Shown here in pieces: positions 1 through 11,053 of a stretch of 11,053 nt of DNA. Positions within the stretch are counted from its first letter, which is position 1; each line of letters begins with the position of its first letter. The DNA comes from a virus (Duplodnaviria > Heunggongvirae > Uroviricota > Caudoviricetes): positions 1 to 11,053 of the IMG/VR virus record IMGVR_UViG_2585427766_000020; one strand, 5' to 3'. The translations under genes were made by a program, and so were the position numbers. The notes below the pieces were generated by a model. That model saw nothing but the letters and a program-made list of their open reading frames with translations. It did not search any database and was not told where the DNA came from.

Positions 1-273
1 CCGACTGCGGCCTGAGTTTTTTAAGTGACGTAAAATCGTGTTGAGGCCAACGCCCATAATGCGGGCAGTTGCCCGGCATCCAACGCCATTCATGGCCATA
101 TCAATGATTTTCTGGTGCGTACCGGGTTGAGAAGCGGTGTAAGTGAACTGCAGTTGCCATGTTTTACGGCAGTGAGAGCAGAGATAGCGCTGATGTCCGG
201 CGGTGCTTTTGCCGTTACGCACCACCCCGTCAGTAGCTGAACAGGAGGGACAGCTGATAGAAACAGAAGCCAC
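1..273 (-). CDS. insA: IS1 InsA (transposition regulator), 91 codons; stop codon lies just outside the window
   Basis: Minus-strand translation from GTG at 271-273 gives [18 protein letters not shown]...[12 protein letters not shown], matching InsA as I remember it. The 90-302 ORF in the supplied track is a different frame and is not InsA. Confidence 0.88.
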
Positions 274-301
274 TGGAGCACCTCAAAAACACCATCATAC
301 A

Positions 302-1096
302 CTAAATCAGTAAGTTGGCAGCATCACCTGAAAACGCTTTGTGGATTTTACCCATTTCTTCGACTTTTGCAGCACGCAGTTGATCCATTACTTTGTCATA
401 AGAGAATCCAGAAGAGTAGATACGATACCCTTTCAGAAACTTTTCATGCAGACGCTGAATATTGTCCAGTAAATAAGCGAATACTAGAGGTGAATCAATT
501 CCATCACTAACTGCTTGGATACTTTCAATCAGAATATCTAGCTTCTGATCCTTATGGGTATCATCATTGAAACAAGCTATAAGGTTATCAAGATACTCTC
601 TTTGCAAATTTTGTACATTTTCTGCAGCGAAGTGCGGTAATAGCTTGATAACTTCTTTTTTCAGAAAAACTAACTGACAAGTTGAGTTATCAAAGTAGGC
701 CGCGGCCTCTTTTAGCAGGTTAACGAACTCGAGAATCTTCCGGTAGTTGCTGATGAAAACGGGGATATCTTCATCATCATTACGAAACTTTGTTTCTAGG
801 ATGAAGTAATTAGCTGGCTCAAGGCACTGATGCTTTGGAGCATTTAGCAATTTTTCATGGGTGGAAAACACAAGTCCCAGTCCACTCCGTGGTGACGTCA
901 CACGTAGGATGATCGTGTTACCTGGAGCGATAGTGCCTGTATCAATAGAAAGACCATATTCACGAGGATCATCAAGCAAAGTATCAACCAGATCACAATC
1001 GGACTGATCTAAGAGCAACAGCGAACCGACACGAAACCCCTCTTGGAATTCCATACGACGATACAGATCTGTCAGCATCTCAAATGAAATCGCCAC
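302..1096 (-). CDS. Hypothetical protein, second gene of the YejK-like operon; C-terminus truncated by IS1 (last 8 codons GDAANLLI + stop are encoded by the IS1 repeat)
   Basis: GTG start at 1094-1096 with GAGG Shine-Dalgarno 7 nt upstream, 2-nt gap to the upstream gene's stop (translational coupling). Low GC. No domain recognisable by eye. 302-328 is IS1 sequence. Confidence 0.7.
   Translation of the reverse strand: MAISFEMLTDLYRRMEFQEGFRVGSLLLLDQSDCDLVDTLLDDPREYGLSIDTGTIAPGNTIILRVTSPRSGLGLVFSTHEKLLNAPKHQCLEPANYFILETKFRNDDEDIPVFISNYRKILEFVNLLKEAAAYFDNSTCQLVFLKKEVIKLLPHFAAENVQNLQREYLDNLIACFNDDTHKDQKLDILIESIQAVSDGIDSPLVFAYLLDNIQRLHEKFLKGYRIYSSGFSYDKVMDQLRAAKVEEMGKIHKAFSGDAANLLI
306..328 (-). 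repeat. IS1 terminal inverted repeat (insA-proximal end, 23 bp)
   Basis: Direct read: atcagtaagttggcagcatcacc on the + strand, the reverse complement of the IS1 IR. Confidence 0.9.
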
Positions 1097-1098
1097 GA

Positions 1099-2106
1099 TT
1101 AAACCTCAGTCATCCACATTTCCCTAAATTCTTCAGGTACATTACGTAGGGTGATAATATTTGTTTCCGGATCATAATCAATATAGCCTTCAGTTTTCCC
1201 TTCCCGGTCAAACTTAAGTTCCCAATATTTAGACTTGCCTTTAAAAGATACCAGAGCCCGAATGACTCGACCATCAGGAACGAAGCCATCCGATAACTCC
1301 AACTCTTCAGCAGCAAGTTTACCAGATAACTCCTCGGGAGCCTGGGGCCAAATGGCATTAACAAGGGTTTCAAGACTAAGTGGTTCACCAGCCTTACTTA
1401 GTGCATGTAAGTGTTCAAACGCACTCTTAAGAAATGCATCTTTTTCAGCGCCGTCAAGTCCTTTCTCTGCCGCAAATGCTTTTAAAACGTCACGTAACTT
1501 TTCAGACTCTCGTTTGGCGATTAAGACATCATTACAGCCGAGGAACTGTTTAAAATAGTTTGAAACATTACCTTGCCCCTTAAGAAAACTGATATAGCGC
1601 TCTGCGCCACTTTCCCACGCGGTTAAGTCAATGCGCCCAGCCATACGCAGCTTAGCAATATCAAGATAGGTACTATCTTGGATGTTAAAATCATCTGTGA
1701 CAGTGGATCCAATGGTAGCGCTTACAATAGCTATCAACAGGTGTTCATTGTGTCCTATCACGATATTTGCAAAAAGAACATAACCACCAGTAGCCATGTT
1801 TTCTCGCTGAGAACGTTCCGTCAGGTGATGCATCATTCGGCAGGAACTTTGGTAGAAATCATCAACACCTTCGAGAAAGTCCCCAGCCATTCGTTCCATA
1901 GGATAGTTATCCGTATCGCCTTCAAAATAGCCATAACCTTTACCTGTGCGTCCTGCATATTTTGCACAAATATCGTTTATAAGGCGCTGGGAGGCTTCAG
2001 TAACTAGACCTTCTTCAGGACTCAATCTCTCAGAAGCGTCTCCATTTTGTTGTTTGTCTAAAATGTGAACTACAACGTGTTTAACTTCAATGGTCTGCTC
2101 AGACAT
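1099..2106 (-). CDS. YejK/NdpA-family (NA37) nucleoid-associated protein homolog, 335 aa, mobile-element-borne divergent copy
   Basis: Same length as E. coli YejK (335 aa). Core TYLDIAKLRMAGRIDLTAWESGAERYISFLKG matches the remembered YejK block [20 protein letters not shown]...RYLTFLKG; C-terminal YIDYDPETNIITL resembles IFWDPATDTLTI. SD AAGGTGGA 6 nt upstream of ATG. AT-rich codon usage unlike the neighbouring phage genes. Confidence 0.8.
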   Translation of the reverse strand: MSEQTIEVKHVVVHILDKQQNGDASERLSPEEGLVTEASQRLINDICAKYAGRTGKGYGYFEGDTDNYPMERMAGDFLEGVDDFYQSSCRMMHHLTERSQRENMATGGYVLFANIVIGHNEHLLIAIVSATIGSTVTDDFNIQDSTYLDIAKLRMAGRIDLTAWESGAERYISFLKGQGNVSNYFKQFLGCNDVLIAKRESEKLRDVLKAFAAEKGLDGAEKDAFLKSAFEHLHALSKAGEPLSLETLVNAIWPQAPEELSGKLAAEELELSDGFVPDGRVIRALVSFKGKSKYWELKFDREGKTEGYIDYDPETNIITLRNVPEEFREMWMTEV

Positions 2107-2176
2107 TAGCTATCCACCTTATTTTTTATTGCTTAATGGCAAATAATTTCTGCTATATGTTCTCGTTAGGAACACA

Positions 2177-2584
2177 TTAACCCACATTTTTTAACCGCTC
2201 AATCGTTGCGGATAATTCCTTCAGTTGTTTTTCCATCTCAATCACACGCTGTTTTTCTTCAGCGCCTCGCATGAGATCTCGCCGAACCTCAGGATCTAAC
2301 TGGTTTAGAAGTTCAAGCATTTTAAGGTCTGACGGGCTGAATTGATGTTGTGTTGGTACAGCAACAATTTCTTTAGATGGAATATGTTCTTTACCGGTAA
2401 GTAGCCAATCGATCGATACACCCAAATGGGTGCTTAGCGCAACAAGAGCCTCTGCGTTTGGTTCTCTCTCTCCACGCAAATAGTTTTGAAGTGAGCGATA
2501 TGGAATTTTTGATAAGTTAGATAATGCCTTTATTGTCATGCCATTAGCATCCATCACTTCACGCAATCTCTCTTTTGTACTCAT
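2177..2584 (-). CDS. Phage repressor, XRE/CI-type HTH DNA-binding protein (135 aa) with coiled-coil C-terminal half and no S24 peptidase domain
   Basis: MSTKERLREVMDANGMTIKALSNLSKIPYRSLQNYLRGEREPNAEALVALSTHLGVSIDWLL is a typical HTH_XRE fold signature. Leftward, divergent from the early operon. ATG at 2582-2584 chosen over the 2680 start, which would overlap the rightward gene and promoter. Confidence 0.8.
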   Translation of the reverse strand: MSTKERLREVMDANGMTIKALSNLSKIPYRSLQNYLRGEREPNAEALVALSTHLGVSIDWLLTGKEHIPSKEIVAVPTQHQFSPSDLKMLELLNQLDPEVRRDLMRGAEEKQRVIEMEKQLKELSATIERLKNVG

Positions 2585-2600
2585 TTGAACATATCTCAAT

Positions 2601-2628
2601 TTGACACACTCATTTGGGTGTGTACAAT
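2601..2628 (+). promoter_or_regulatory. Sigma70-type early promoter for the rightward operon: TTGACA (2601-2606), 16-bp spacer, TACAAT (2623-2628)
   Basis: Near-consensus hexamers read directly, about 45 bp upstream of the Cro/Ner-like start. Confidence 0.55.
2604..2623. promoter_or_regulatory. Candidate repressor operator: inverted repeat ACACAC-N8-GTGTGT inside the early promoter spacer
   Basis: Perfect 6-bp arms read directly; lies between -35 and -10 where a repressor would occlude RNA polymerase. Confidence 0.45.
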
Positions 2629-2672
2629 AGACCCAATAGAGTACATCATAACCTAACAGGAACACGGTGCAT

Positions 2673-2897
2673 ATGAACAAACAACAAGTTCGGGCACGGC
2701 TGGTTGAACGAGGCAGTAGCTTGCGCCAGTTCGCGCTTAACGCGGGCTATGAACCACGAACAGTCACCCAGGCAGTCAGTCGCTGGGCTGGTAAAAGTGA
2801 ACTACCTCGCGGTCGTTTGACTTATCGGATTTTGCGAGATCTATCGGTTGCAATAGGTAAAGAAGTTACCCCCGGTATCCTTAAGGAGGCGTCATGA
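2673..2897 (+). CDS. Cro/Ner-like small DNA-binding protein (about 74 aa)
   Basis: First rightward gene after the switch. RLVERGSSLRQFALNAGYEPRTVTQAVS resembles the Mu Ner HTH region in pattern. ATG 2673 preferred; GTG 2667 is an alternative. Stop overlaps the next start (ATGA at 2894-2897). Confidence 0.6.
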   Translation: MNKQQVRARLVERGSSLRQFALNAGYEPRTVTQAVSRWAGKSELPRGRLTYRILRDLSVAIGKEVTPGILKEAS

Positions 2898-3202
2898 ATA
2901 AACCAAATACATCAAGCTCAGGTACCCGTATTTTGCGCGTTCTTAAGGCCTTACGTGGCCACGCTTTGAACGGTGTTTCTAACGGGGAACTAGCGGTTGC
3001 ACTGCACGAATCACCGGCAAACATCAACCGGGCACTTAACACGCTCATTGAAGAAGGGTTGGCTCTGAAACTAGAAAACGGGCGTTTCGCACCAGGCATC
3101 CAGTTGCTGCAGATCGCCATGGCCCACAGTAACGAGATGGCACGTGCACAGGATCGCATTAACGAAATCAACCAACGTGTTATTTCAGGTAGTCGTTTGT
3201 AA
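2894..3202 (+). CDS. Winged-helix HTH DNA-binding protein (102 aa), hypothetical
   Basis: Strong SD AAGGAGG at 2883-2889. ILRVLKALRGHALNGVSNGELAVALHESPANINRALNTLIEEGLA looks like a MarR/IclR-type wHTH. Confidence 0.6.
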   Translation: MNKPNTSSSGTRILRVLKALRGHALNGVSNGELAVALHESPANINRALNTLIEEGLALKLENGRFAPGIQLLQIAMAHSNEMARAQDRINEINQRVISGSRL

Positions 3203-3212
3203 GGAGTAATCA

Positions 3213-4124
3213 ATGGGACGCACCAAATCACCGGTTAGCACTGAACTGAACGTCGAGGTACCGCTGTCGGATGATCTCAATGTCAGTCTAAACGCCATGA
3301 CACAGCATCGCATGGAAATCATGCAACAGTTCGGCGATGGTCTGCCCTATGAGCGCGATCGTGTTGTCCATGAGGCACGCTTTTATATGGCACAGAGCGC
3401 TGAGGCCATGCTGGAGGCAGGTAAGCGGCTGATAATCCTTAAGGAAAATGAACCACACGGGGAGTTTATAAAGATTCTTGAAAGTGAGTTGGGGCTGGCA
3501 TACCGGACATCTGTGAGAATGATGCAAGCATCGACAAAATACTTATCCCCGGCGCTGAAACCAAATGTGCCAACGTTGGCACATTTGGGAAAAGCCAAAC
3601 TTTTCGAATTAATGACAGAAGACGACGAAGAGCTTGCCGAACTGGCCGACGGCGGCACAGTTGCCGGCCTGACGCTTGACGACGTTGATCGCATGTCAGT
3701 ACGTGAATTGCGTCAGGCCCTGCGCGAAGCGCGCGAAACCAACGCAGCACAACAGCGCGTACTCGCTGACAAAAATGAAAAAATAGACTCACTCTCCACC
3801 AGACTGGAGAAGAAATCCCGTATTCAGCCGCCTGAGCCTGATGAAGAGGTTAAGAAGCTGCGGGCGGAAGTGACAGCATTAGCGGTTGAGGCGGAATCTG
3901 CTATCGCCGTTCGACTGTCCAGCGCTTTTGAGACGCTGTGCGCATATTGTGCTGAAAACATGATTGATACCCCCAGAGACTTCATGGCAGGCCTGGTCTG
4001 TCAACTGGAAAGCACAGCGCGTAGCCTGCGCTCCACATTTGACCTGCCGGATGAGCCAACAGGCAATGCCGCGCCTTCATGGCTGACTGAGCCGACGCCA
4101 CAGATTAACGGGCTGGAGGCATAA
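3213..4124 (+). CDS. Hypothetical coiled-coil protein (303 aa) located between the regulators and the transposase
   Basis: SD AAGGAG at 3201-3206. Long intact ORF in the operon; C-terminal half has heptad-like charged repeats. No family confidently recognised. Confidence 0.6.
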   Translation: MGRTKSPVSTELNVEVPLSDDLNVSLNAMTQHRMEIMQQFGDGLPYERDRVVHEARFYMAQSAEAMLEAGKRLIILKENEPHGEFIKILESELGLAYRTSVRMMQASTKYLSPALKPNVPTLAHLGKAKLFELMTEDDEELAELADGGTVAGLTLDDVDRMSVRELRQALREARETNAAQQRVLADKNEKIDSLSTRLEKKSRIQPPEPDEEVKKLRAEVTALAVEAESAIAVRLSSAFETLCAYCAENMIDTPRDFMAGLVCQLESTARSLRSTFDLPDEPTGNAAPSWLTEPTPQINGLEA

Positions 4125-4127
4125 CCA

Positions 4128-5897
4128 ATGAATGCTGCCCTGACTGAACGACTGGTTTATGTCGCCCGCGCGGCACGTGACGCGGGGCATGGTAAACGCG
4201 GTGCAATATACGACGCTGCCTGTGCTGAACTTGGCATGTCCCGCGCCACTCTGCTGCGCAGGCTGAAGGAGGTCTCTGTGACTGATAAACGCAAAAAACG
4301 CGCTGATGCCGGACGCAGCGCCCTGACCCGCGACGAAGCCGCGCTGATATCTGCCACACTGCGTGAGGCCACCCGCAAGAACGGTAAGCGTCTCTATTCC
4401 ATCGCGGATGCAGTGGAAACCCTGCGGGCTAACGGCTTTATCTCCGCAGGCAGAACAGATGAAACCACCGGTGAGTTTTTCCCGTTGTCCGAAGATGCCA
4501 TCAGTCGTGCCCTGCGTAACTATGGCCTGCACCCGGAACAACTGGATGCTCCTGCGCCGCATACCGAAGTGGCCAGTCTGCATCCCAATCATGTCTGGCA
4601 GATTGATGCCTCGCTCTGCACGCTTTACTACCTGAGCAATGGACACAAAGGGCTGCAGGTGATGGACAGCGCGAAGTTCTACAAGAACAAACCCGCTAAC
4701 CTTGCCCGTATCGCCAGTGACCGCGTGTGGAGTTACGAGATTACCGACCATGCCAGCGGCTGGATTTACGTTGAGTATGTGACGGGTGCGGAATCCGGTG
4801 AGAACCTGTGTTCTGTGCTTATCAACGCCATGCAGGAGCGTGGCGGCGCAGACGTGCTGCACGGCGTGCCAAAAATACTCTATCTCGACCCCGGTTCGGC
4901 AAACACCGCGGGTATGACGAAAAACATGTGCCGCTCACTGGGCATTGACCTGATAGCGCACAAGCCGCATAACGCCCGCGCCACCGGACAGGTGGAAAAG
5001 GCGCGTGACATTATCGAACGCAAGCTGGAGCCGGGTCTGAAGTTCCGGCCGGTTCACAGTCTGGAAGAACTCAACGCGCTGGCCGCGAAATGGCGCAGCC
5101 ACTTTAACGCCACGGCTGTTCACAGCCGCCACGGTAAAACCCGCACGGATATCTGGCTGAAGATTACTGCTGAGCAGCTGAAAAAAGCGCCTTCCGTTGA
5201 GGTATGTCGTGAACTGGCTGTGGCGGCACCAGAACTCCGCAAAGTCACGCCAAAACTTCGTGTCTCGTTCCGGGGCACTGAATTTGACGTATCAACGGTA
5301 CCGGGCGTACTGGTCGGTGAAAAACTGATGATTACCCGTAACCCGTGGCGCAGCGATGTGGCACAGGTGGTTCTGACCGGTGAGGACGGCCACGAGACGT
5401 TCTTCCTGGTCGAAGAGGTCAGAAAGAACGAGTTTGGCTTTGCTGAAGGCGCGGCGGTATTTGGCGAAAGTTACAAAGCCCTGCCGGAAACCCCGGCGCA
5501 GATGGCGGCAAAAGAAACCGAAGCGCTGGTCACCGGTACAGACAACGCCGCAGATGCAGCTGCCGCACGCAAGGCGAAGGCGCTGCCGTTCGGCGGGCGG
5601 CTTGACCCGTATAAACATATTGATGACGCCACACTTCCGGCCTATATGCCGAAGCGAGGTCAGGCCTCTGACGTACGCGGACCGCGCACTGAACAGCGTC
5701 CCATGACTCATGTGGAGGCCGCGAAAGCCCTGCGCGGGAAGTTCAGCGCCAACGGCCTTACCTGGACGCCGGAACATTACCGCCAGTTAACGGCACAGTA
5801 CCCGGACGGCGTACCGGAAGCCGCACTGGATGAAGTCATGGCCACGCTGACCACGCCGGCCCGCAGCAGTGTTATCAGCATTGTTAACGGCAACTGA
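4128..5897 (+). CDS. DDE transposase of a transposable phage (Mu A-like, rve/integrase-core family), 589 aa
   Basis: SD GGAGG at 4115-4119. HPNHVWQIDASLCTLYY is typical of the first catalytic-Asp region of rve-type transposases. Followed by a B-like ATPase and by gam, gemA-like and mor. Confidence 0.8.
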   Translation: MNAALTERLVYVARAARDAGHGKRGAIYDAACAELGMSRATLLRRLKEVSVTDKRKKRADAGRSALTRDEAALISATLREATRKNGKRLYSIADAVETLRANGFISAGRTDETTGEFFPLSEDAISRALRNYGLHPEQLDAPAPHTEVASLHPNHVWQIDASLCTLYYLSNGHKGLQVMDSAKFYKNKPANLARIASDRVWSYEITDHASGWIYVEYVTGAESGENLCSVLINAMQERGGADVLHGVPKILYLDPGSANTAGMTKNMCRSLGIDLIAHKPHNARATGQVEKARDIIERKLEPGLKFRPVHSLEELNALAAKWRSHFNATAVHSRHGKTRTDIWLKITAEQLKKAPSVEVCRELAVAAPELRKVTPKLRVSFRGTEFDVSTVPGVLVGEKLMITRNPWRSDVAQVVLTGEDGHETFFLVEEVRKNEFGFAEGAAVFGESYKALPETPAQMAAKETEALVTGTDNAADAAAARKAKALPFGGRLDPYKHIDDATLPAYMPKRGQASDVRGPRTEQRPMTHVEAAKALRGKFSANGLTWTPEHYRQLTAQYPDGVPEAALDEVMATLTTPARSSVISIVNGN

Positions 5898-5907
5898 GGA
5901 GGAAAAC

Positions 5908-7074
5908 ATGCTGGTACTGAAGCAGCAACTGAAAGAGGCCCGTATTTCACAGGCGGTGGTGGCGAGAGCTGTCGATGTTTCTGAGGCCACGCTGGCCCAG
6001 ATTGTGAATCATAACGCGTGGCCCCGCACCAGCCCCGGAGAAGTGCGCCGGCGTCTTGCGTCCTGGCTGGAAAGTCAGGGGATTGATACAGCGAAGAGTT
6101 TTGATGCTGTACAGGGCGCGGCCACGCCCCGTACATCGGGTACCACAGATAAAACGAGCCTCAGTGAGGAAGAGAATATGTTACTCAAAAAACAGGTGTT
6201 ATTTCCAGCAACCAAAAAAGCGTTTGGTCTTTTCCGTGACCCGTTCGCCGACGAAGCCATGCAGGGTTCTGATGATGTGTTCACCACCCCGGACATTCGC
6301 TACGTGCGTGAGGCGTTGTACCAGACAGCACGTCATGGTGGGTTTATGGCCGTCATCGGTGAGTCCGGTGCGGGTAAATCCACGCTGCGCCGTGACCTGA
6401 CTGAACGTATCAACCGCGAGAATGCGCCAGTGATTGTTATCGAGCCATACATCATCGCTATGGAAGACAACGATGTGAAAGGGAAAACTCTGAAGGCAGC
6501 AGCGATTGCCGAAGCCATTATCAGTACCATCGCACCACTGGAAAGCATCAGACGCAGTCAGGACGCCCGCTTTCGCCAGTTGCATCGCGTCCTGAAAGAC
6601 AGCAGCCAGGCGGGGTTCAGCCACGTTCTGGTGATTGAGGAGGCCCACAGTCTGCCCATTCCGACACTGAAACACCTCAAACGCTTTTTTGAGCTGGAGT
6701 CCGGTTTCAAAAAACTGCTGTCCATCGTGCTAATTGGTCAGCCGGAACTGGCGACAAAACTGTCTGAACGCAATATGGAAGTCCGTGAAGTCGTTCAGCG
6801 CTGTGAGGTGGTCGAACTTCTGCCTCTGGACAATAACCTTGAAGAATTTCTGACGTTCAAACTGCAACGGGCCGGTAAACAACTGACGGACATTATGGAC
6901 GCCAGCGCAGTGGATGCCATACGTGCCCGCCTGAGCAATCCGGGAAGTCATCGTAAAAATATGGTCAGCCTGCTGTATCCGCTGGCCGTCAGTAACCTGG
7001 TAATAGCCGCCATGAATCTGGCTGCTGAAATCGGGGTTCCACAGGTCAACGCTGACGTTGTCAAAGGGGTTTAA
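5908..7074 (+). CDS. AAA+ ATPase, transposition target-DNA activator (Mu B-like/TniB-like), 388 aa
   Basis: SD GAGGAGG at 5896-5902, ATG 5908. N-terminal HTH-like segment, then Walker A GESGAGKST and Walker B-like HVLVIEEAH. Sits immediately after the transposase as in Mu A-B. Confidence 0.8.
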   Translation: MLVLKQQLKEARISQAVVARAVDVSEATLAQIVNHNAWPRTSPGEVRRRLASWLESQGIDTAKSFDAVQGAATPRTSGTTDKTSLSEEENMLLKKQVLFPATKKAFGLFRDPFADEAMQGSDDVFTTPDIRYVREALYQTARHGGFMAVIGESGAGKSTLRRDLTERINRENAPVIVIEPYIIAMEDNDVKGKTLKAAAIAEAIISTIAPLESIRRSQDARFRQLHRVLKDSSQAGFSHVLVIEEAHSLPIPTLKHLKRFFELESGFKKLLSIVLIGQPELATKLSERNMEVREVVQRCEVVELLPLDNNLEEFLTFKLQRAGKQLTDIMDASAVDAIRARLSNPGSHRKNMVSLLYPLAVSNLVIAAMNLAAEIGVPQVNADVVKGV

Positions 7075-7076
7075 TA

Positions 7077-7346
7077 ATGAAATCCACCACAGGTATCAAC
7101 CAGCAAATCAGCAAAGTGCAGTCAGCCATTATGGCGCTTAAGGCGACGAACACGGATGTACAAAGCATCACCATCAGGGGGAACAAACCTGTCATCCGCG
7201 TTTCCCGGAGTGCGCATTGCATGCGCATGCTTGAGCAGGGAAAGGCCTGTTATCTGTATACCGGACATGACCACAGGGGATATTTCCGTCAGGGCGTTTT
7301 CGAACTGCACGGCTGTCGCGTCGTGTGGCCGGAATCTTTGTGGTAA
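7077..7346 (+). CDS. Hypothetical early protein (89 aa)
   Basis: Intact ORF 2 nt after the B-like stop, same strand and operon. No family recognised. Confidence 0.5.
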   Translation: MKSTTGINQQISKVQSAIMALKATNTDVQSITIRGNKPVIRVSRSAHCMRMLEQGKACYLYTGHDHRGYFRQGVFELHGCRVVWPESLW

Positions 7347-7373
7347 TCAGCACAACCGGAGAAATCATAAAAA

Positions 7374-7904
7374 ATGGCAAAAAGTACAAAAGGTGCAAAA
7401 CGTATCAAGGCCGCAGCAGCACTCTGGGTGCCGGGGACACGTGAAGAGGTCATTGAGGGCATCAGACTGCTCGGTGACGCACACCGTGAACTGGTCAGGG
7501 CTGAAACAGAAATGAATGACGCCATTGGCGATATCACCGCACGTTATGCCCCGCTCACCGAGAGCCTGAAAAAACGCATGGCCGAACTGCAGTCCGGTAT
7601 TCAGACATGGTGTGAGGCACACCGTGATGAACTGACCGGCAACGGGAAGGTGAAGTTCGCTAACCTCACCACCGGCGAGGTGCAGTGGCGAAACCGTCCG
7701 CCATCAGTCAGTATCCGTGGGGCGGATAATGTTATTGAATTACTGAGACGTCTGGGGCTTGAGCGCTTTATCCGTGTAAAGGAGGAAATAAATAAAGACG
7801 CTATCCTGAATGAAAAGGACGCCGTGAAAAATATTCCCGGTATTACCATAAAAAGTGATATTGAGGATTTTTCAATAATTCCTTTTGAGCAGGATGTGCA
7901 GTAA
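7374..7904 (+). CDS. gam: Host-nuclease inhibitor protein Gam (Mu Gam family; binds DNA ends, protects against RecBCD)
   Basis: 176 aa. Blocks ETEMNDAI, WCEA.RDELT, PPSVSIRG and GIT.KS.IEDFSIIPFEQ match Mu Gam (174 aa) as I remember it. Confidence 0.9.
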   Translation: MAKSTKGAKRIKAAAALWVPGTREEVIEGIRLLGDAHRELVRAETEMNDAIGDITARYAPLTESLKKRMAELQSGIQTWCEAHRDELTGNGKVKFANLTTGEVQWRNRPPSVSIRGADNVIELLRRLGLERFIRVKEEINKDAILNEKDAVKNIPGITIKSDIEDFSIIPFEQDVQ

Positions 7905-8001
7905 ACACACCACGTTAATTATTTAATAAAAACATTTTCTTTTTTATTCCGGCGTCAGCGCCGTGGGCTTCTGCACGCCGGAAACAGAGGAGAATTAAAT
8001 T

Positions 8002-8196
8002 ATGATATTTAAATGTATTCAGTGCGAGAGGGATATAACAGCCCTGCGTTTTCACAGCGCCATCGCCGTGATGTCCGGTAAATACCACATCCCTGCGGTA
8101 CGCGTCACCCTGGTCTGCCCGTACTGCAGCCAGCATTTTTCGGCAGACGTGCCCGTCATGGAATTCTCCCGCCCTGACAGGGAGGACTCGCAATGA
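8002..8196 (+). CDS. Small zinc-ribbon-like protein (64 aa), hypothetical
   Basis: Two CxxC pairs (CIQC...CPYC). SD GAGGAG at 7987-7992. Stop overlaps the next start. Confidence 0.5.
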   Translation: MIFKCIQCERDITALRFHSAIAVMSGKYHIPAVRVTLVCPYCSQHFSADVPVMEFSRPDREDSQ

Positions 8197-8465
8197 TTAC
8201 CCCACAGGAAGCACGACAGCGCACCCGAACCCTTGTTGAACACTATGTCAACGAGTGTGAATGCCGCGACCTCACCGATGTGAAGCACGTCCTGACGGCG
8301 CTAATCAGCATGACCGCTCAGGCCATTGTGGCGACCAACGGAAAGGCGGCTGCCCTGCAGGTACTGGTGAACACACTAACCCACACGGCAGCGCATGAGG
8401 TGCCGTACCGGATGGAAACCACTGCAGAAGGCGGTCTGCACATCACCGTCAGCCGGAATCACTGA
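8193..8465 (+). CDS. Hypothetical protein (90 aa)
   Basis: ATGA start/stop overlap with the upstream gene; GC-rich coding-like composition. No family recognised. Confidence 0.5.
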   Translation: MITPQEARQRTRTLVEHYVNECECRDLTDVKHVLTALISMTAQAIVATNGKAAALQVLVNTLTHTAAHEVPYRMETTAEGGLHITVSRNH

Positions 8466-8474
8466 GGGCGCAGC

Positions 8475-8780
8475 ATGACACGGTACACCATACTCACCCG
8501 CACCGCCCTCTACCGTCTGGCCCTGCAGCGTTTCGGGCCGGACGCACAGGCCCTGAAACTGACAGAAGAGGCCGCTGAACTGGCAGCCTGTGCTGCCCGC
8601 AACCTGAACGGACAGGGCAGTGAAAGTGACCTCGCGGCAGAGCTGGCAGACGTGGAAATCATGACAGAGCAGTTGCGCCTTCAGGGGATGGACCGGCTGA
8701 TTGACTTCCACAAACAGAAAAAACTGGAACGCCTTGCCGCACGGCTGGGCGTCATGTACACCGGAGATACTGAACAATGA
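8475..8780 (+). CDS. MazG-like nucleotide pyrophosphohydrolase family protein (101 aa)
   Basis: LKLTEEAAELAACAARNL...ESDLAAELADVEIM resembles the EExxE / ELADV helical signature of small MazG-like all-alpha NTP pyrophosphatases. Assignment from motif pattern only. Confidence 0.6.
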   Translation: MTRYTILTRTALYRLALQRFGPDAQALKLTEEAAELAACAARNLNGQGSESDLAAELADVEIMTEQLRLQGMDRLIDFHKQKKLERLAARLGVMYTGDTEQ

Positions 8781-9460
8781 CAGACTTGGATAAACACATT
8801 GAAAAACTGAAAAAGTTGCTGGCGCTGGCAGCATCCGGCAACCCGTATGAGGCTGCTCTGGCACTGCGCCGCGCCCGTAAACTGATGGATGTTCACGGCA
8901 TCACACATTCCGACATTGCCATGAGTGATATTGATGAAACCATCAGTCATTACTGGCCGACAGGCAGTCTCCGTCCACCGCGCTACATGCTGGGCCTGAT
9001 GAACATCATCCGCGAGGCATTTGGTGTTAACTCCATAATTCACCCCGGCACATATCCGGGTGTGGGGTTCTACGGCAACCGGGAACGGGCCGCACTGGCT
9101 GCGTACACCTGGGAAGTGCTGGCCCGCCAGCTGAAAAAGGCGCGTCAGCAGTATATCAGCGCACAGAACAAAAGAATAAAAACTGCCACCCGTACCAGCC
9201 GTGGTGACCAGTTTGCTGAAGGCTGGGTGCTGGCCGTTATCAGTGAAATACAGTCCTTCGCCCTGACCGATGACGAACGTGAACTGATGCAGCAGTGGCT
9301 GGAACATAAATACCCGCAGACGCAAACCACCAGGGCGCGTAAACCGGGAAGAAGCCGCAATGGCGACGCCTCGCGCTATGCGGGGTTTCGTGAAGGGCAG
9401 AACGTCAGACTGCACCGCCCGGTCAGTGGGCAGGAACAACAGAAACTGGAGGCCAGATGA
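8777..9460 (+). CDS. DUF2786-like phage protein (227 aa)
   Basis: N-terminal IEKLKKLLALAASGNPYEAALALRRARKLM is the characteristic DUF2786 motif, common in Mu-like and other phages. ATGA overlap with the upstream stop. Confidence 0.65.
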   Translation: MTDLDKHIEKLKKLLALAASGNPYEAALALRRARKLMDVHGITHSDIAMSDIDETISHYWPTGSLRPPRYMLGLMNIIREAFGVNSIIHPGTYPGVGFYGNRERAALAAYTWEVLARQLKKARQQYISAQNKRIKTATRTSRGDQFAEGWVLAVISEIQSFALTDDERELMQQWLEHKYPQTQTTRARKPGRSRNGDASRYAGFREGQNVRLHRPVSGQEQQKLEAR

Positions 9461-9687
9461 TTACGCTATCAGGTAACAGCCGGAAATTAAAAGCCTGCCG
9501 AATATCTGCCAGATACCTTTTTGCCCGCGCCTTTTTTAAGAACGTAAGGCCGGGGATCACAATTGGTGTTATTGCCGGACGCGAACAGGTTGAAAAATAC
9601 ATGTCAGGTGCATGGTGGAATAACGACCCTGTCATTGCTGCCCGTAATATTCATATCAGTTGGGGGGATATTCAGAATGACGGCTGA
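9457..9687 (+). CDS. Hypothetical protein (76 aa)
   Basis: ATGA overlap with upstream gene; in-operon ORF. Confidence 0.45.
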   Translation: MITLSGNSRKLKACRISARYLFARAFFKNVRPGITIGVIAGREQVEKYMSGAWWNNDPVIAARNIHISWGDIQNDG

Positions 9688-9892
9688 ATCTGTTGTATGT
9701 GCCCTGTTCTGGTATTGTTTTGTCGGTTGGTGTACTGCTGAACTGCACCGCCGTTCAGGGTTTTATTCACGTTACAGTGGTGCCGGCTACTGGATTAGCT
9801 GGTCGGTGATGTTCCTGTGCTGGCCTGTGGCGCTTCCTTTATATGTCGATTATATCGGTGGCGCAGGTAAAAGGAGCAACGATGATGACTAA
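9677..9892 (+). CDS. Small membrane protein with two predicted transmembrane segments (about 71 aa)
   Basis: Internal ATG at 9677 of the 9563-9892 ORF chosen to minimise overlap. Hydrophobic stretches VVCALFWYCFVGWC and YWISWSVMFLCWPVALPLYV. Confidence 0.45.
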   Translation: MTAESVVCALFWYCFVGWCTAELHRRSGFYSRYSGAGYWISWSVMFLCWPVALPLYVDYIGGAGKRSNDDD

Positions 9893-10334
9893 ACAACGTC
9901 TTATCCAGCTCATTCATATTGCCCGTAATGAACTGGGTATGGATGAAGACACCTACCGCCAGATGTTACAGGGGCTGACCGGTAAAGCCTCAACCAAAGG
10001 AATGGATACCACACAACTAAACTGCGTGCTGGAATCCATGAAAAGGAAAGGCTTTCGCGTTAAGCCTGCCAGAAAAGCCAGCTCCGGTTTACCGCTGGAT
10101 AACCATCCGCAGTCCAGGAAAATCCGTGCGCTATGGCTTGAAATGGCTGCTGCCGGCATTGTTCGTGACCGTTCAGAAAATGCATTAGCGCGGTGGATCA
10201 AGCGGGAAACGGGCATCAGCGCCCTGCGCTGGCTCAATACTGAACAGGCAAGCAGTGTTATTGAGAAACTGAAGAAGTGGCAGCACAGAGCTGCGGGAGT
10301 AAAACATGAGCGACCTGAATCAGTTTCGAAGTAA
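9882..10334 (+). CDS. gemA: GemA/gp16-like protein (Mu-like prophage gp16 family, DUF1018)
   Basis: SD AAGGAG at 9871-9876, ATG 9882. RLIQLIHIARNELGMDEDTYRQMLQGLTGKAS matches the remembered N-terminal signature of the Mu gp16/GemA family. Sits immediately upstream of mor as in Mu. Confidence 0.7.
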   Translation: MMTKQRLIQLIHIARNELGMDEDTYRQMLQGLTGKASTKGMDTTQLNCVLESMKRKGFRVKPARKASSGLPLDNHPQSRKIRALWLEMAAAGIVRDRSENALARWIKRETGISALRWLNTEQASSVIEKLKKWQHRAAGVKHERPESVSK

Positions 10335-10695
10335 AGGGCCGGAACTCCTGGTGGAACTGGCACAGCATACCTCTGAGACCGTTCGCGAGATTATTGATAT
10401 TGAGCCCGCAATTGCCGACCAGATTGGTCAGGCCGTCGCGAACCGCATGATGCAGGTCTGGGGCGGGCAAAACGTTTATTTCCCGATGGGCATGGTATGG
10501 AAGGTCAGTCAGCGCGACCGGGAAATCTTCAGGGAGTTTAACGGACGTAACCACCATGAACTGGCCCGCAAATTTGGTGTTTCGCTTCAGTGGGTCTACA
10601 GCGTGGTTAAGCGGGTAAGAAAAGAAGAACTGGATCGGATGCAGGGCAAGCTATTTGCTGATGAACCCGATGTAGATACGGAGAAAAAAGAGTAA
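10306..10695 (+). CDS. mor: Middle operon regulator Mor (Mor/C family transcription activator), 129 aa
   Basis: Same length as Mu Mor. VYFP and FNGRNHHELARKFGVSLQWVYSVVKRVRK match the Mor/C-family conserved FNGRN...Y and HTH region. Overlaps the gemA-like 3' end by 29 nt. Confidence 0.85.
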   Translation: MSDLNQFRSKGPELLVELAQHTSETVREIIDIEPAIADQIGQAVANRMMQVWGGQNVYFPMGMVWKVSQRDREIFREFNGRNHHELARKFGVSLQWVYSVVKRVRKEELDRMQGKLFADEPDVDTEKKE

Positions 10696-10724
10696 TATCT
10701 GCAATCAGGCTGGAGCGAGTTCTG

Positions 10725-11053
<329 letters not shown>

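Follow-up and report, generated by a model that had tools for sequence, protein, structure and literature searches.

The main finding presented here concerns an AAA+ ATPase gene in the early region of an Escherichia coli BcepMu-like (Bcepmuvirus) transposable prophage, which probably yields two isoforms, of 42.8 and 33.1 kDa, from in-frame starts at positions 5908 and 6178. The gene lies in a stretch of 11,053 nucleotides (nt), positions 1 to 11,053 of the IMG/VR record IMGVR_UViG_2585427766_000020, which was analysed as a whole and is hereafter called the window. All annotators (PGAP and GenBank) call the ATPase start at 5908, and annotation pipelines record a single product for this gene. 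Comparison with orthologues indicates that the ATG at 6178 (Met91 of the long form), the spacing of its Shine-Dalgarno (SD) sequence, a TTA second codon and low mRNA structure are kept by nucleotide-level selection across the family. In the predicted structure, the same Met coincides with a domain boundary, which separates an N-terminal helix-turn-helix (HTH)-like domain and its linker from the AAA+ module.

Start signals and their conservation among orthologues

The annotated start of the ATPase, ATG 5908-5910, opens MLVLKQQLK, and 270 nt downstream, in the same frame, ATG 6178 opens MLLKKQVL (Table 1). An earlier note on this DNA had described a GAGGAGG-N5-ATG at 5908 and a GAGGA-N7-ATG at 6178, each preceded by EEEN codons, and this description is exact, the in-frame codons being GAG GAG GAA AAC before 5908 and GAG GAA GAG AAT before 6178. 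The first EEEN precedes the start codon and overlaps the stop of the transposase gene, TGA 5895-5897, and is therefore not translated in the ATPase. The nested open reading frame (ORF), for which about 299 amino acids had been given, in fact encodes 298, and the predicted short form would begin with (f)MLLKKQVLFPATK. The further idea that the internal site duplicates the primary initiation region has to be abandoned: local alignment of the two regions scores 11, the internal region also reaches 11 against unrelated starts of the window, and aligning the primary region with the start of another gene yields 15, so that the likeness is no greater than among unrelated starts and reflects traits that start regions share. 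An internal promoter giving a separate short transcript was likewise rejected, since a simple consensus scan across 5700-6400 found no sigma-70-like promoter, and thus no such site between the two starts.

Orthologous loci were gathered from GTDB genomes (80) and from IMG/VR (160), the genome loci belonging to Enterobacterales, Pasteurellaceae, Thiothrix, Gallionella, Burkholderiales and Methylomicrobium. The Met91 column is ATG in 151 of the 152 aligned loci from both sources, the exception being a frameshifted pseudogene, and in 61/61 representatives of a dereplicated set (less than 85% amino acid identity to each other; 52-94% amino acid identity), on which the SD scores and codon counts given below are based. 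Pairing with the anti-SD sequence was scored upstream of every codon, and an SD core was defined as GGAG, GAGG, AGGA or AAGG at a spacing of 3-11 nt. By these measures Met91 resembles the annotated start, with an SD core in every representative (61/61, 100%) and a mean anti-SD energy of -8.1 kcal/mol; the corresponding values are 72% and -8.6 kcal/mol at the annotated start, and 11% and -2.1 kcal/mol (standard deviation 1.6) for the gene-wide column mean. The other conserved Met residues of the protein, M185 and M369, show -0.8 and -0.4 kcal/mol, with an SD core in 0% and 2% of the representatives, respectively. When the 61 relatives are aligned on the internal ATG, the consensus reads G-A-G-G-A at -12 to -8, the same geometry as in the window. 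Among the loci gathered, the ATPase gene is frameshifted or truncated in three (L047, L019 and L022), from Symbiopectobacterium and Erwinia tracheiphila, which fits prophage decay in host-restricted bacteria.

The peptide encoded just before Met91 varies widely, the 61 representatives having 52 different pentapeptides and 53 different 12-mers at this place, every one of them with an SD core; SEEEN, EGDDN and IKDEI are examples, together with the five non-acidic ones named below. This variation bears on the explanation that the signal is a by-product of the protein or the result of chance, an acidic, Glu/Asp-rich patch followed by the hydrophobic MLL happening to spell GAGGA...ATG. Acidic residues are indeed common at -4 and -3, and the single window sequence lies within chance expectation, but the synonymous choices lean to the SD. 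G occupies position -10, the third position of its codon, in 90% of the representatives versus 32% gene-wide; Glu at this codon is encoded by GAG in 35/38 cases versus 49% gene-wide (p=1e-8, nominal, as the sequences share ancestry), and Lys by AAG in 10/11. Furthermore, QECEP, LEVHD, KKAVD, VMEAR and PEGID still spell GGAG or AAGG, and synonymous resampling of the six upstream residues gives weaker SDs, with a mean of -4.6 kcal/mol versus the observed -7.5 kcal/mol (Wilcoxon 1e-7, also nominal). The synonymous bias and the resampling have already largely refuted this by-product or chance explanation, which we consider very unlikely.

Constraint is also found around and downstream of the ATG. 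The codon of Leu92 is TTA in 45/61 representatives versus 9% gene-wide, and CTG in 1/61 versus 54%. Codon identity in a sliding window of seven codons reaches its peak for the gene from residue 86 (ratio 1.56, gene mean 1.00, standard deviation 0.12), and codons 87-100 form the least structured and most A/U-rich mRNA of the gene, with a mean 45-nt folding energy of -4.8 versus -9.8 kcal/mol in the 61 relatives. An overlapping gene in another frame was rejected as the explanation for this constraint, because the other reading frames that cross the site show no conserved ORF; in some relatives their stop-free stretches are 7 and 13 codons long only. A different possibility is that the SD-like sequence slows elongating ribosomes at the boundary and so aids the folding of the N-terminal domain (N-domain), Met91 being structural only. 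The location of the motif at the end of the disordered linker would suit such a pause site, and the invariant Met-Leu-Leu fits a protein motif. Nevertheless, a pause site needs neither an ATG 4-9 nt downstream, nor a rare, A/U-rich TTA, nor minimal mRNA structure; the ATG, the TTA and the low structure together form the signature of an initiation region, which argues against pausing. Homologues do open at this boundary, as described in the next section, and the pausing of elongating ribosomes by SD sequences is itself disputed; the pause site is therefore an unlikely explanation. The internal SD and ATG, whose conservation in orthologues the earlier note had proposed as a check on its claim, are kept at the nucleotide level, beyond the needs of the protein.

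Recombination could also be considered, since the nucleotide constraint peaks exactly at the module junction, where the N-domains differ among relatives and alignments start at about residues 70-94; a short conserved stretch there might serve as the crossover for N-domain swaps in mosaic phages. What is kept, however, is a degenerate functional motif, as seen in the 53 12-mers among the 61 representatives, whereas homologous exchange would call for a longer run of identical nucleotides than the 8 nt of the conserved part ATGTTACT. We regard this as the least probable of the four alternatives weighed in this work.

Domain boundary and relatives without the N-domain

The ATPase matches Pfam AAA_22 (PF13401) over residues 142-285 with 73.1 bits versus a gathering cut-off of 27 (E=3.6e-20), and PHROG 296, 'DNA transposition protein', over residues 1-387 (E=1.3e-93); the N-domain alone still matches this PHROG with E=4.4e-16. 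The AlphaFold2 model has a mean predicted local distance difference test (pLDDT) score of 90.8 and places five helices in the N-domain, a disordered linker of variable sequence and length after it (Table 1), and a confident AAA+ module that begins at residue 91, the first ordered residue past the linker. The model therefore agrees with the earlier suggestion that the short form would lack an HTH-like N-domain. Support from profiles comes from a weak HTH_3 match in the window protein and from a precomputed match to PF01381 in Serratia orthologues, and the alignment of orthologues shows N34, H35, W38 and P39 as conserved residues of the N-domain. The nearest solved folds found by Foldseek are Cdc6/Orc1, RuvBL and TnsC (8fcu, 7ufi and 7m99), all at 12-17% identity; the TnsC matches (8fcu_Q, E=1.7e-7; 7ufi_1, 6.5e-7; 7m99_A, 1.3e-6) rank equally with those to Cdc6/Orc1 and RuvBL. 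A sequence search of the PDB with the ATPase was uninformative, returning Walker-A (P-loop) matches to ABC transporters only. In one relative of 1045 amino acids (P0266), the ATPase homology occupies the C-terminal residues 676-1042; this protein may be a transposase-ATPase fusion, or the product of a missed stop or a frameshift.

A Met is found at the boundary column in 111 of 151 proteins of the wider family (150 cluster representatives at 40-67% identity, plus the window protein). In the family, the part before the boundary Met has a highly modular make-up: many relatives have a different N-terminal domain, their homology starting at residues 70-94. In P0128, P0141, P0170, P0179 and P0239, and in the loci L187, L188 and L192 (N-extensions of 360-380 amino acids), unrelated or much longer N-terminal extensions take the place of the 90 residues of HTH-like domain and linker. 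A second sub-family, at 40-45% identity and with the motif PExEML[ST], has kept the SD core, which precedes the boundary Met in 32 of 34 representatives. This Met lies 9-10 residues before the FxLFxDPF motif, the distance for Met91 being 15 residues.

Other homologues begin close to the boundary. Genes for stand-alone ATPases of 285-286 amino acids follow immediately on that of the transposase. These ATPases share 45-46% identity with residues 103-388 of the window protein and open at a boundary Met of the second sub-family type, with a canonical SD in non-coding DNA. Two Lonsdalea species have about 200 nt of unrelated, GC-rich DNA instead of the N-domain (L050, 3064-3969, and L052); their ATPase ORF opens four codons before the equivalent of Met91, and ggagg stands 4 nt upstream of that Met. 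An element of Lelliottia wanjuensis (L037, 2989-3936) encodes 19 residues only before Met91, followed by MLL. These homologues that begin at the boundary indicate that the AAA+ module is a natural, self-sufficient gene product.

The same homologues, together with the swapping or absence of the N-domain in many relatives, could be taken as evidence that an HTH gene was joined to one for a stand-alone ATPase, whose former SD and ATG remain inside as an unused relic. The N-domain is nevertheless homologous across sub-families only 40-45% identical, so that any such fusion would be old. Synonymous sites are near saturation at these distances (codon identity 0.32-0.61), and the SD core is still kept in 61/61 and 32/34 representatives through varied codons and peptides. 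The second codon TTA and the weakly structured mRNA persist as well, and in an unused relic all of these signals would have decayed. A fusion scar without function is thus also improbable. The four alternatives, each of which fails on part of the evidence, together receive only a small share of the probability, and a very small remainder is left for readings not listed here.

Several points weigh against a second product made from ATG 6178. The internal SD is of moderate strength and much weaker than its primary counterpart (-6.5 versus -12.1 kcal/mol), and as a single sequence it is within chance: the annotated genes of the window hold 73 internal in-frame ATGs, an anti-SD duplex of -6.5 kcal/mol or better occurs at 5.4% of their codon positions, and about four SD and ATG sites as good as 6178 would be expected, two being seen (6178 and 8412). 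The significance of 6178 therefore comes from the comparison of orthologues only, and not from the window sequence. Within that comparison, the nominal p values overstate independence, since the sequences are related by descent, and Met91-Leu92-Leu93 is invariant among close orthologues, so that the conservation of the ATG may in part reflect a need of the protein. The boundary Met of the second sub-family and of the stand-alone ATPases aligns about six residues downstream of Met91, in a different column. Database proteins that start with MLLKK were rejected as support for a short form, P0120 beginning at a contig end and P0075 at a scaffold gap of Ns, and four further short representatives (P0125, P0187, P0198 and P0215) are unconfirmed. 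Finally, initiation by ribosomes at 6178 is deduced from its start signals, and the role that we infer for the short isoform is drawn wholly from analogy.

Proposed role of the two predicted isoforms and known parallels

The sites and the timing of DDE transposase activity are set by accessory AAA+ ATPases such as MuB, TnsC, TniB and IstB. We propose that a single early-operon mRNA would carry both starts of the window ATPase. Initiation at ATG 5908, whose SD abuts the transposase stop, would give the protein of 388 amino acids with HTH-like N-domain, flexible linker and AAA+ module, and initiation at ATG 6178, with its SD GAGGA, 7-nt spacer and unstructured A/U-rich stretch, would give the AAA+ module alone, of 298 amino acids. 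Because AAA+ transposition ATPases act as DNA-bound oligomers, the long and short subunits may co-assemble, and the long:short ratio would then set the number of N-domains per assembly, with possible effects on target capture, immunity or contact with the transposase. This logic of co-assembly and tuning is borrowed from ClpB95/ClpB80 and from gp4A/gp4B of phage T7. More tentatively, and with a little less than even confidence, we suggest that the BcepMu-like transposable phages and their relatives in Gamma- and Betaproteobacteria all obligatorily make both forms, and that the ratio within mixed oligomers is an intrinsic means of regulating the choice of target, transposition immunity or the activation of the transposase.

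E. coli ClpB (ClpB95/ClpB80) and ClpA are AAA+ proteins in which an in-frame internal start gives an isoform without the N-domain, and gene 4 of phage T7 produces gp4A (63 kDa) and gp4B (56 kDa) from one mRNA by means of an internal SD and ATG, the short form being without the zinc domain. These are closer analogies than the truncated transposases named in the earlier note, since it is an ATPase, and not a transposase, that would be shortened here. Like ClpB, for which a case in M. tuberculosis has also been described (PMC6168691), the window protein is an AAA+ ATPase whose second start lies at the boundary between N-domain and AAA+ module, and its short form would keep the oligomerising ATPase, so that mixed oligomers are expected; unlike it, ClpB belongs to an unrelated AAA+ clade acting in protein disaggregation, and its two products are demonstrated, whereas those of the window ATPase are predicted. 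The likeness to T7 gene 4 is that of an oligomerising phage NTPase of DNA metabolism whose short form loses an N-terminal DNA-recognition domain, but the T7 protein is a RecA-type helicase-primase and its two forms are experimentally established. Tn5 Inh and the double starts of IS21 IstA are also N-terminally shortened, in-frame products of mobile elements that are without the DNA-binding part, and the short ATPase could in a similar way modulate transposition. In those systems, however, the transposase is shortened, whereas in the window it would be the accessory ATPase and not the rve transposase; moreover, Tn5 Inh arises from its own transcript, and no inhibitory role is indicated for the window ATPase.

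The designation 'B-like', given to this gene by the earlier note, is appropriate for its position and architecture and not for its sequence. As in Mu B, the gene stands directly 3' of the transposase gene and an HTH-like N-domain is flexibly tethered to an AAA+ module, as reported for Mu B (PMC11292022) and as predicted by AlphaFold2 for the window protein. The two sequences have no significant similarity (BLASTP E=2.3), which rules out membership of the Mu B family by sequence, and both touch only a generic TIGR03015/AAA_22-type profile. No Pfam match to the Phage-MuB_C domain was found in the window ATPase at E<=0.01, Mu B lacks a Met where its N-domain meets the AAA+ module, and the partner of the window ATPase is a rve/Tn552-like transposase, unlike MuA. 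The closest transposition-related folds are those of the TnsC/TniB type, from Tn7-like and CRISPR-associated elements (Foldseek E 1e-7 to 1e-6, template modelling score 0.45-0.65), proteins of about 260-310 amino acids, near the size of the predicted short isoform; at 14-17% identity the resemblance is at the level of the fold only, and no internal start has been described for those proteins.

The device itself, an in-frame internal start of the ClpB or T7 gp4 type, is well known, and a report of it in the family of this ATPase was not found. No account of an internal start or of two isoforms in BcepMu-like, ExeA-like, TniB, MuB or Edwardsiella 'Eha' proteins came up in the open literature, a coverage that is incomplete and leaves most subscription journals outside. 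If the proposal is true, subunits with the N-domain and subunits that lack it are both produced across a large family: the stretch 5600-7100, which covers the ATPase gene, occurs in 637 of 5,426 complete E. coli genomes, and the family extends to many other genera. Such a family would offer, ready made in nature, an 'N-domain dosage' experiment on what the N-domain does in proteins of the Mu B type, the role of whose HTH-like N-domain is explicitly stated to be unresolved (PMC11292022). Should the short form turn out not to be made, the conservation at the nucleotide level would need another explanation.

Features of the window and gene neighbourhood

The window covers the early region of the prophage and matches E. 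coli DLI.5a at 100% identity and phage PhiKM at 98%. On the plus strand, the genes follow in the order of a DUF3102 protein (3213-4124), the rve-type transposase, the ATPase, a small ORF and Gam, and end with Mor. The features under study are collected in Table 1.

Table 1. Coordinates of the transposase and ATPase genes and of the start signals and domains of the ATPase in the window
Feature	Position	Strand	Basis
rve-family (DDE) transposase gene, 589 amino acids	4128..5897	+	ORF list; Pfam rve E=1e-08; PGAP 'integrase catalytic domain-containing protein'
Primary Shine-Dalgarno GAGGAGG, 5 nt (aaaac) before ATG 5908	5896..5902	+	sequence; anti-SD duplex -12.1 kcal/mol
ExeA/AAA_22-family AAA+ ATPase gene, long form of 388 amino acids, 42.8 kDa	5908..7074	+	ORF list, Pfam, PHROG, PGAP
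N-terminal helical HTH-like domain, residues 1-69	5908..6114	+	AlphaFold2, five helices, pLDDT 87-97
Hypervariable linker, predicted disordered, residues 71-90	6118..6177	+	pLDDT <50; sequence and length vary in alignments
Putative internal translation-initiation region, codons 86-100	6163..6207	+	peak synonymous constraint; least mRNA structure
Internal Shine-Dalgarno core GAGGA, 7 nt (agagaat) before ATG 6178	6166..6170	+	sequence; anti-SD duplex -6.5 kcal/mol
Internal in-frame ATG (Met91), opening MLLKKQVL	6178..6180	+	sequence; orthologue conservation
Nested ORF, predicted short isoform, AAA+ module only, 298 amino acids, 33.1 kDa	6178..7074	+	sequence; AlphaFold boundary; N-domain-less homologues

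The genes around the ATPase are tightly packed. The transposase stop overlaps the primary SD of the ATPase, and the ORF that follows the ATPase begins at 7077, 2 nt beyond its stop; the packing at 5895-5910 and at the 7072-7079 junction suggests translational coupling. The absence of an SD core at the annotated ATPase start in 28% of relatives fits coupling to the transposase.

The ATPase gene goes by the label 'Eha protein' in the annotation of phage PhiKM and by 'ExeA family protein' in that of PGAP, and its BcepMu homologue was once discussed as an ExeA-like secretion/virulence (toxin-secretion) factor, in a passage of PMC2628397 that cites the BcepMu paper. The position of the gene and its PHROG family point to a transposition ATPase instead of a secretion factor.

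By the annotation of the identical region of E. coli DLI.5a, Mor (10306-10695) is the last phage gene, and a truncated pseudogene of a host sodium:solute symporter begins within about 160 nt 3' of it, in the segment at about 10696-11053. The presence of this pseudogene after Mor places the prophage end and the host junction inside the window, the early operon being transcribed toward that end. Elsewhere in the window, an internal in-frame ATG at 8412 lies near the end of a 90-amino acid ORF (coding sequence 8193-8465) and is preceded by the SD-like catGAGGtgccgtaccggATG, with -6.9 kcal/mol; among the remaining internal in-frame ATGs of the window, no other has an SD-like sequence that matches the strength of the one at 6178.

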